DNA of 64,000 nucleotides from a virus (Duplodnaviria; Caudoviricetes), in the IMG/VR virus record IMGVR_UViG_3300037295_000263, positions 1 through 64,000 of that record. One strand, 5' to 3'. Each line of letters starts with the position of its first letter. Positions within the stretch are counted from its first letter, which is position 1. Positions 35,577 through 36,643 of this stretch are shown here, in pieces. The notes beneath the pieces are model-generated. The model ran no database searches. It had not been told where the DNA came from and was given only the letters and a program-made list of their open reading frames with translations. A program made the translations under genes and the position numbers.

Positions 35577-36431
35577 ATGTCAGATCAACCTATTAAACAA
35601 CCAAATCCTCTTGCTAATTACTTTAGGCAACCAAAATTATACATCAAGCTGCCCAGTAATGGAAAGTTTTATCCCGACGGATCGTTGGACATTAGTGAAA
35701 TAGGAGAATATGCAGTATATGCTATGACTGCTAAAGACGAGTTGATGTTTAAAACACCCGATGCATTAATGAACGGCCAATCTACAGTGGAAGTTATTAA
35801 AAGCTGTGTTCCTTCTATTAAAAATCCATGGATAATGCCCAGCATTGACATAGATGCAGTATTGATTGCTATACGAATAGCAACGTATGGCGAAGAAATG
35901 GAGTTTACTTCGTCGTGTCCCCAGTGTAATCATTTTAACGATTTAGTTTTTAAATTAACTAGTTACTTGGACATAACTAATGACTTCGATTACGAAGAAG
36001 AAATAATGATAGGTCCGCTGACACTTTTTATTAGACCTTACACTTACAAAGAGATCAGTAAACATGCAATCAAAACTCTTGAGCAACAAAAGATTTTATC
36101 AATTGTCAATGACGAAAACTTATCTGACGAAGAAAAAATCAATCAGTTCGGTGAAAGTTTTGTCAAGTTAACAGAATTAACTGTTAGTGTTGTTGCTGGC
36201 TGCGTTTACAAAATAGTAACTCCTGATACTGTTGTAGAAGATAAAGATCAAATATTAGAATTTATTACTAACAGTGATAAAGAAACATTTAATGCTGTAA
36301 ATTCTCGTATAGCCGAACTTAAAGAAAAAATTACACTGAAGAGTCAAGAAATAACTTGCGAAGAATGTAGTCATCAATTTAAGATAGACATTACCTTGGA
36401 TCAATCTAATTTTTTCGCAGTAGGATCTTAA
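35577..36431 (+). CDS. Baseplate hub/tail assembly chaperone, T4 gp26/gp51 family (284 aa)
   Basis: NPL..YFRQPKLYIKLPS.G, MTAKDEL, IDIDAVLIAIRIATYG and two CxxC pairs (CPQC, CEEC). GGAG RBS. Confidence 0.8.
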   Translation: MSDQPIKQPNPLANYFRQPKLYIKLPSNGKFYPDGSLDISEIGEYAVYAMTAKDELMFKTPDALMNGQSTVEVIKSCVPSIKNPWIMPSIDIDAVLIAIRIATYGEEMEFTSSCPQCNHFNDLVFKLTSYLDITNDFDYEEEIMIGPLTLFIRPYTYKEISKHAIKTLEQQKILSIVNDENLSDEEKINQFGESFVKLTELTVSVVAGCVYKIVTPDTVVEDKDQILEFITNSDKETFNAVNSRIAELKEKITLKSQEITCEECSHQFKIDITLDQSNFFAVGS

Positions 36432-36643
36432 GTCTCTCTCAACTAGAGATCCTGAGTTACGTACAACAACTAGAAAAAGAAGCAAGAGAGATCAAAAAAG
36501 ATTTATTGAAAATCTGTTGGTATATGCGCGGCCTAAGCTATCAAGAAGCACTGAATTTAGATATCGAAGAGCGAAAGATAATCGGAACAATCATTAAAGA
36601 CAATTTAGAAACAACAAAGAAAACAGGATTGCCTTTCTTTTAA
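36410..36643 (+). CDS. Unannotated -1 frame extension of the chaperone (75 aa), probably reached by programmed frameshift
   Basis: The -1 frame opens exactly at the heptamer T TTT TTC (a TAA sits at 36407-36409). It reads RSRILSLSQLEILSYVQQLEKEAREIKKDLLKICWYMRGLSYQEALNLDIEERKIIGTIIKDNLETTKKTGLPFF* and has no convincing own start. Confidence 0.7.
   Translation, partial: FFRSRILSLSQLEILSYVQQLEKEAREIKKDLLKICWYMRGLSYQEALNLDIEERKIIGTIIKDNLETTKKTGLPFF

Follow-up and report, generated by a model that had tools for sequence, protein, structure and literature searches.

A probable -1 programmed ribosomal frameshift in a baseplate-hub assembly gene of the T4 gp26/gp51 family

We examined a 64,000-nucleotide (nt) stretch of viral DNA, here called the window, which covers positions 1 to 64,000 of the IMG/VR record IMGVR_UViG_3300037295_000263. 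The source record belongs to an uncultured virus, spans 216.7 kb and is 59% complete. A search of sequencing runs traced it to a single DNA run, a salt lake metagenome from which it probably derives, and listed no RNA run that contains the locus. Judged from its sequence, the gene at positions 35577 to 36431 of the window is a baseplate-hub assembly gene of the T4 gp26/gp51 family (PF12322), and a genome search found no second PF12322 gene in the record. Close to its stop codon lie a slippery heptamer and a stem-loop, followed by an open reading frame (ORF) in the -1 frame, and the comparison with relatives reported here makes it very likely that the gene gives rise to two proteins, of 284 and 355 amino acids (aa), by -1 programmed ribosomal frameshifting at TTTTTTC. 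The elements of this recoding cassette are the following.

35566-35569, plus strand: Shine-Dalgarno sequence GGAG of the short-form gene
35577..36431, plus strand: short-form gene (284 aa, protein P0001), the 0-frame ORF, matching PF12322 (T4_baseplate) and phrog_150
36410..36416, plus strand: slippery heptamer T_TTT_TTC, in X_XXY_YYZ register in the 0 frame, recognized by its sequence and its conservation in relatives
36417..36420, plus strand: spacer of 4 nt from heptamer to stem, or of 5 nt when counted to the first Watson-Crick pair
36421..36454, plus strand: putative stimulatory stem-loop (RNAfold and covariation), with arms at 36421-36429 (5') and 36446-36454 (3')
36429..36431, plus strand: 0-frame stop codon TAA, four codons past the heptamer and assigned to the loop of the stem-loop
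36416..36643, plus strand: extension in the -1 frame (P0002), 75 codons reading RSRILSL...GLPFF, then TAA at 36641-43
36686..36715, plus strand: terminator-like hairpin with T tail, 43 nt past the stop codon of the -1 ORF (consensus scan only)

An earlier reading made from the sequence alone (here termed the sequence-only reading) had given positions for the ORF, the heptamer, the -1 frame with its only ATG, and the stem, all of which hold when the sequence is read again. The 0-frame ORF ends with the codons AAT TTT TTC GCA GTA GGA TCT TAA. The -1 frame is shut by a TAA at 36407-09 and then stays open from the heptamer for 75 codons, with a sole ATG at 36524 (codon 38). The predicted trans-frame product would combine residues 1-280 of the 0 frame with the 75 residues of the extension to give 355 aa, with the junction ...SNFF-RSRIL. 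In a consensus scan of the plus strand from the start of the gene to 37100, the hairpin beyond the -1 ORF was the only terminator-like site; the stretch from the 0-frame stop through 36643 showed none. No Rfam family fits the cassette.

The assignment of the gene is based on matches of P0001 to the Pfam model PF12322 (64 bits, with a cut-off of 24.5; E 2e-17; model positions 9-218 of 219) and to the PHROGs family phrog_150, 'baseplate hub' (E 2.8e-17). An AlphaFold2 (AF2) model of the short form had a predicted local distance difference test score (pLDDT) of 86.6, and its last 8 residues, which lie at the junction, were disordered.

Since a blastn search against the phage collection returned just one match of 93 nt, relatives were sought at the protein level. 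A tblastn search of isolates retrieved 95 phage records, all of them jumbo myoviruses of the RaK2/121Q/PA5oct/Atu_ph07/Phosso kind with 24-36% identity, and a search of IMG/VR retrieved 85 loci with identities of 45-82%. For the comparative analysis, 95 loci were used, comprising the window, 10 isolate jumbo phages and 84 uncultured viral contigs. In 93 of these 95 loci the heptamer T_TTT_TTC is present at a conserved Phe-Phe, and the remaining two, from phages RAS14 and Xoo-sp13, carry T_TTT_TTT, so that no locus lacks a slippery heptamer; this includes loci with protein identities to the window as low as 24%. The 0-frame stop follows 1-6 codons past the heptamer in 83 loci and after 12 codons in Serratia phage BF, RAS14 and Xoo-sp13.

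Codon usage at the heptamer is equally strict. The first Phe codon is TTT and the second TTC in every one of 76 distinct homologous genes (76/76 each), and T is invariably the last base of the codon before them, while every other conserved column shows synonymous variation. As a control, three other conserved Phe columns of the same 76 genes use TTT in 64-68 and TTC in 6-12 of them (84-92% TTT). TTC is thus the rare Phe codon, yet it is chosen every time at this position, and codon bias cannot explain the heptamer. U_UUU_UUC meets the rules described for frameshift-prone heptamers in Escherichia coli, with UUY in the A site and with X and Z both pyrimidines, and U7 is avoided genome-wide in this bacterium (PMC4066793); this avoidance may explain the fixed C at position 7 of the heptamer. 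Stenotrophomonas phage RAS14 and Xanthomonas phage Xoo-sp13, in which the 0 frame runs on for those 12 codons and the -1 product begins with FFY, have a variant of the cassette and form the most divergent branch.

A homologous -1 ORF of 73-79 codons is present in all 95 loci. Its product starts with FFR in 92 of them (PA5oct has FFQ, and RAS14 and Xoo-sp13 have FFY) and shares the motifs ..EIL.., CWYMRG, EER and NLETTKK. No start codon is conserved in this ORF: the first ATG, GTG or TTG may come as early as codon 3 or as late as codon 48, and only in 5 of 83 loci does it lie within 5 codons of the junction. Members of one clade have either ATG or ATA at the overlap position (FFRMR, FFRIR), tracking the use of TGA or TAA as the stop codon. 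In codons 8-37 of the -1 frame, which lie past the 0-frame stop and before the only ATG of the window's extension, variation at codon positions 1, 2 and 3 was 0.34, 0.21 and 0.53. This pattern, upstream of any ATG, is a coding signature in the -1 frame, and the comparison of sequences shows purifying selection both on the recoding signal and on the -1 ORF.

In databases the extension appears mainly in pieces. A profile of it matched 449 proteins among 1.84 billion representatives, mostly fragments of 40-98 aa with ragged N termini, and the database clusters of the extension, 881 in number, consist of nameless fragments. P0002 matched nothing in Pfam and had a single weak match in PHROGs (phrog_18291, E 0.007), and the profile found nothing meaningful among PDB sequences. 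Structural comparison of the extension with VIA-align gave helix-loop-helix-like matches with Z scores of 5-6, a common arrangement that we set aside. The extension is called as a separate 'hypothetical protein' in 8 of the 10 isolate records (L001, L002, L004, L101, L102, L104, L105 and L106), with unrelated starts that are either overlapping ATGA or TAATG sequences or internal ATGs 20-100 nt downstream. It is left unannotated in the records of PA5oct and RaK2 (L003 and L103), and none of the 10 records marks a frameshift.

The putative stimulatory structure of the window pairs AGGATCT (36422-28) with AGATCCT (36447-53) in 7 Watson-Crick pairs; in RNAfold the helix is extended by one G.U pair on either side, with a folding energy of -13.3 kcal/mol. 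Covariation was analyzed in 44 ungapped sequences of the window's clade. Their common helix has 9-11 bp and begins 3-5 nt past the heptamer, and 83% of its cells are paired, compared with 33-49% in slid registers. Cells with changes on both sides numbered 34, compared with 9.7 in shuffles, and none of 500 shuffles reached 34. The compensatory exchanges include AU<->GC in 10 sequences at each of two pairs, and at a third pair UA is replaced by CG (5 sequences) or AU (3 sequences). The correlation between the arms is not accounted for by coding constraint, since changes in the 3' arm are synonymous in the -1 frame and their counterparts in the 5' arm replace amino acids. Other clades have different stems, often stronger ones, at the same spacing.

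Independent information on the long form came from genes that encode it without recoding. Among the best 150 of the 449 profile matches, about 20 are in-frame long proteins of 319-351 aa that carry the extension at their extreme C terminus, and the three checked on their contigs all have PF12322. These proteins are collinear with the predicted trans-frame protein, with the junction ..xF-R..IL.. at the slip site. Most of them have a single Phe there, which indicates that they are not T-run indel variants of frameshift-type genes. The AF2 model of one of them (P0013), built from an alignment of 20 sequences, was confident throughout (pLDDT, 90.7; predicted template modeling score, 0.87) and shows the extension as helices 266-341 within one compact model. 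On this comparative evidence, the extension is a genuine C-terminal module of the PF12322 family.

In two contigs a short and a long PF12322 gene stand in tandem, with 281 and 335 aa in contig L100 and 294 and 346 aa in contig L098, and the long gene has the extension in frame. L100 is a 327-kb contig that shares the synteny of the window, including the portal gene, the large divergent gene, a SegE-like endonuclease gene and gp46/47-like genes. The tandem long forms and the stand-alone ones (P0010...P0140) have the core, the extension and the junction Phe in common with the window; in L100 and L098, however, the short and long forms come from two genes and recoding is unneeded, whereas the window has one gene. 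Counted over whole genomes, Phosso, Atu_ph07, PA5oct and 121Q have one PF12322 gene each, and T4 has two.

The short gene of L098 (820-1704) ends with TCT TTT TTC AAT GAC TAA, in which the heptamer is kept and the -1 frame is shut after two codons; an overlapping TAATG provides the start of the long gene. The arrangement in L098 has the appearance of a vestigial frameshift site.

When a maximum-likelihood tree was built from the core domain, the long forms grouped together (one change; support 72/23) and the frameshift genes fell into several clades, with the short gene of L098 nested inside the frameshift clade of the window. T4 gp26 and gp51 pair together on long branches (support 98/93). 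This pattern suggests that switches between the one-gene and the two-gene state probably occurred more than once, and the T4 pair may represent an independent duplication.

How the two forms would arise can be outlined as follows. Most ribosomes would read ...Asn-Phe-Phe-Ala-Val-Gly-Ser and stop, which gives the 284-aa short form. Some would be made to pause by the stem-loop 4-5 nt further on, at a moment when tRNA-Phe occupies the P site (UUU) as well as the A site (UUC), and both tRNAs could then slip back by one base to UUU UUU in the -1 frame. Reading on in this frame for 75 codons would yield the 355-aa long form, ...SNFF-RSRILSL...GLPFF, whose C-terminal helices are predicted by the models to pack on the body of the protein. 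The two forms would presumably be required at a set ratio for the initiation of the hub, the tape measure or the tail tube, as for gpG and gpGT of phage lambda, and T4 gp26 (short) and gp51 (long) would be the two-gene equivalent.

We consider it highly probable that recoding of some kind takes place at the T run, and likely that the slip is a ribosomal one. The sequence-only reading had proposed a programmed -1 frameshift with products of 284 and about 355 aa, and this proposal is now backed by the conserved heptamer, the -1 ORF, the stem and the in-frame long forms. When the homologues were aligned, heptamer, stem and -1 frame all proved to be conserved, and among the 95 loci we found no homologues that lack the slippery site and start the downstream ORF at a conserved ATG. 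We found no publication or database record that describes this frameshift, and targeted reading of PMC5009743, PMC9024508 and PMC10885494 gave no mention of it.

The alternative closest in its outcome is transcriptional slippage, in which RNA polymerase would add one U on the T6 run so that some mRNAs encode the 355-aa protein in frame. Its product would be identical (N-F-F-R...), and comparative protein evidence cannot separate it from a frameshift. Efficient slippage by bacterial RNA polymerase is typical of runs of 9 or more, and T6 is short by comparison. The run does not exceed six in 93 of the 95 loci and the C at position 7 is fixed, whereas selection for slippage would tolerate or favor longer runs, and a covarying stem 4-5 nt downstream is the classic stimulator of ribosomal slipping. 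Homopolymer runs are known slippage sites, and the avoidance of U7 in E. coli genes has partly this cause (PMC4066793). On balance we regard slippage as improbable. An artefact, in the form of an assembly indel in the T run that splits a long gene, or else a decaying pseudogene, might be suggested by the frequency of homopolymer indels among assembly errors and by the existence of in-frame long forms elsewhere. However, 95 independent loci, 10 of them in finished isolate genomes, repeat the same two-frame layout with a run of exactly six or seven T residues, which excludes an assembly artefact; moreover, the in-frame long forms fall into separate clades, and at the junction most of them have just one Phe. 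We attach next to no probability to this explanation.

It is also quite improbable, in our estimate, that the downstream ORF is a separate small gene whose product, made through termination-reinitiation or from a non-canonical or internal start, is an unfused protein of 39-75 aa. Most isolate records annotate it in this way, from assorted ATGs, and an ATG lies within 5 codons of the junction in the 5 of 83 loci noted above. Against this, no start is conserved (codons 3-48), and the only ATG of the window would remove the conserved N-terminal half of the extension. The segment before the starts is conserved as protein and aligns residue by residue with the in-frame long forms from the Phe onward, and in one clade ATG alternates with ATA at the overlap position, following the TGA or TAA stops. 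A separate gene would also leave the synonymous fixation of T_TTT_TTC unexplained.

The probable frameshift invites comparison with other tail assembly systems. Short and long chaperones made as pairs by frameshifting are a hallmark of lambda-like, P2-like and Mu-like tail assembly, with E/E+E' of P2 as a further known case; we are not aware of a described equivalent in phages of the T4 type. For gpG/gpGT of lambda, and for the -1 frameshift that tail assembly chaperone genes of long-tailed phages conserve, the sources are Levin 1993 and Xu, Hendrix and Duda 2004, as cited in PMC5009743. Like lambda G/GT, the window has an assembly gene of a long-tailed phage with an X_XXY_YYZ heptamer a few codons before the stop, followed by a -1 ORF without its own start, from which a short form and one extended at the C terminus would result; a tape-measure-like gene lies next to it. 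Unlike lambda gpG (~140 aa), the protein of the window belongs to PF12322, is about 280 aa long and has two Cys pairs, and unlike in lambda GT, the extension is predicted by the models to pack on the body, with no free T domain. By analogy, a G/GT-like chaperone function of the window gene is plausible.

Several observations weigh against a frameshift-made chaperone pair. The gene is divergent from the tape-measure-like gene and does not lie between the tube and tape-measure genes as in lambda. No Pfam tail-assembly-chaperone family was matched: P0001 matched only PF12322, with CpXC below threshold, and P0002 had no match. The model of the long form resembles YqbN (3klu; Z 5.3; root-mean-square deviation [rmsd] 3.9 over 101 residues) and the HK97 chaperone (2ob9; Z 4.3; rmsd 3.7 over 79 residues), both below the level that the tool treats as meaningful, and the model of the short form does not reproduce these chaperone-fold matches, its list being filled by helical hairpins. 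The orthologue in Pectobacterium phage CBB (L101 689-1546, CBB_250) is annotated as 'structural protein', a label that would argue against a purely non-structural chaperone role if it is based on mass spectrometry (MS) of virions. On the side of the recoding signal, the stem of the window is unexceptional when taken by itself, with z = -1.68 and an equally good fold in 10 of 200 shuffles, and its spacer of 4-5 nt is among the shortest that are usual. Finally, the 5 of 83 loci with an ATG overlapping or adjoining the 0-frame stop, together with the 8 of 10 records with a separate coding sequence, make independent initiation possible in those lineages. As to presence in virions, the annotations of relatives conflict: next to the label in CBB stands the record of the PA5oct orthologue, which carries no MS note, while that of its neighbor does. 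A Foldseek search with the long-form model against PDB and AlphaFold/Swiss-Prot gave no match with E <0.05 and did not recover T4 gp26 or gp51.

In T4 itself, gp26 (208 aa) and gp51 (249 aa) belong to the same Pfam family, PF12322, as the window gene. In gp51, PF12322 covers residues 1-201 and the remaining 48 aa form a tail, an arrangement that mirrors the short and long forms of the window. This fits with the sequence-only reading, which had noted that T4 uses separate genes for gp26 and gp51: both are PF12322 proteins, and gp51 has the additional tail. The Phe-Phe at the end of the core domain is an amino-acid motif of the family as a whole and is common to the window and T4, where gp26 ends ...EFFELL. 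There is no frameshift in T4; the codons of its Phe-Phe are TTC TTT and offer no slippery site, and what follows gene 26 in the -1 frame is gene 25, which has an ATG to itself.

Whether the T4 tail corresponds to the extension was addressed by profile comparison. In hhalign, a profile of the gp51 tail scored 48% against the second half of the extension, and 81% (E 1.2e-5) when the extension profile was widened with the in-frame long forms. The single T4 gp51 tail sequence scored 5% against the extension, and full-length profiles of the T4 type and the window type align at the N terminus only. Precomputed Pfam tags give PF28602 as a second domain on gp51 relatives (P0154-P0245) and on 0 of 120 listed extension ORFs. 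Taken together, the tail of gp51 is probably homologous to the extension as far as these sequence profiles go. PMC3004832 counts T4 gp26 and gp51 among the hub assembly chaperones and characterizes gp51 as an essential protein that particles lack and whose function is not known.

The surroundings of the cassette, with a further ORF of the structural region, comprise the following.

13058-23467, minus strand: a single ORF of 3469 aa within the structural region
32615..35527, minus strand: 970-aa neighbor gene, possibly for a tape measure or virion structural protein, beside the portal gene and divergent from the short-form gene
37193-37621, minus strand: gene for a SegE-type GIY-YIG homing endonuclease (PF19835, E 1.9e-33)
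40725-41570: gp55-like late sigma factor gene

Other T4-type genes of the window encode a major head protein, a prohead protease, a portal protein, a gp46/47-like nuclease and a gp5-like hub-lysozyme in addition to the late sigma factor. In the divergent intergenic region, CATAAATA at 35538-35545 (plus strand), 32 nt 5' of the ATG of the short-form gene, matches 7 of 8 positions of the T4 late promoter consensus TATAAATA and is a candidate promoter. The sequence-only reading had placed the gene next to, and divergent from, a tape-measure-like gene. The divergent orientation stands; the neighbor is possibly a tape measure protein, for which we have leads only. These are Atlas feature matches to tape-measure and lytic-transglycosylase clusters, with scores of 0.89-0.94 (to be taken only as a lead), and the annotation of the RaK2 orthologue as 'similar to ... 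tail tape measure protein'. BLASTP found no significant match between the 970-aa protein and T4 gp29. On the other side of the cassette, the homing endonuclease gene lies on the opposite strand between the gp26-like and the gp46-like nuclease genes, and L100 has one in the same place (9759-10247). It may be that both genomes receive a mobile endonuclease at a common insertion site here.

The roles of T4 gp26 and gp51 are still unclear (PMC3004832). By analogy with lambda, we tentatively propose, at somewhat less than even odds, that the gp26/gp51 (PF12322) family could be the T4-type counterpart of the lambda G/GT pair and might set the ratio of short to long forms for the complex of hub and tape measure that starts the tail tube. 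This ratio would be set by a frameshift in the giant relatives and by two genes in T4 and some others. For annotation, the probable frameshift corrects the records of ten isolates, in which the extension is a separate hypothetical protein called from arbitrary ATGs, or is not called at all. It also offers an experimental handle in the culturable phages 121Q, RaK2 and PA5oct. The strict conservation of the frameshift, and its being interchangeable with two genes in the course of evolution, imply that both forms are needed, and the frameshift would link the hub chaperones of T4 to a general principle.

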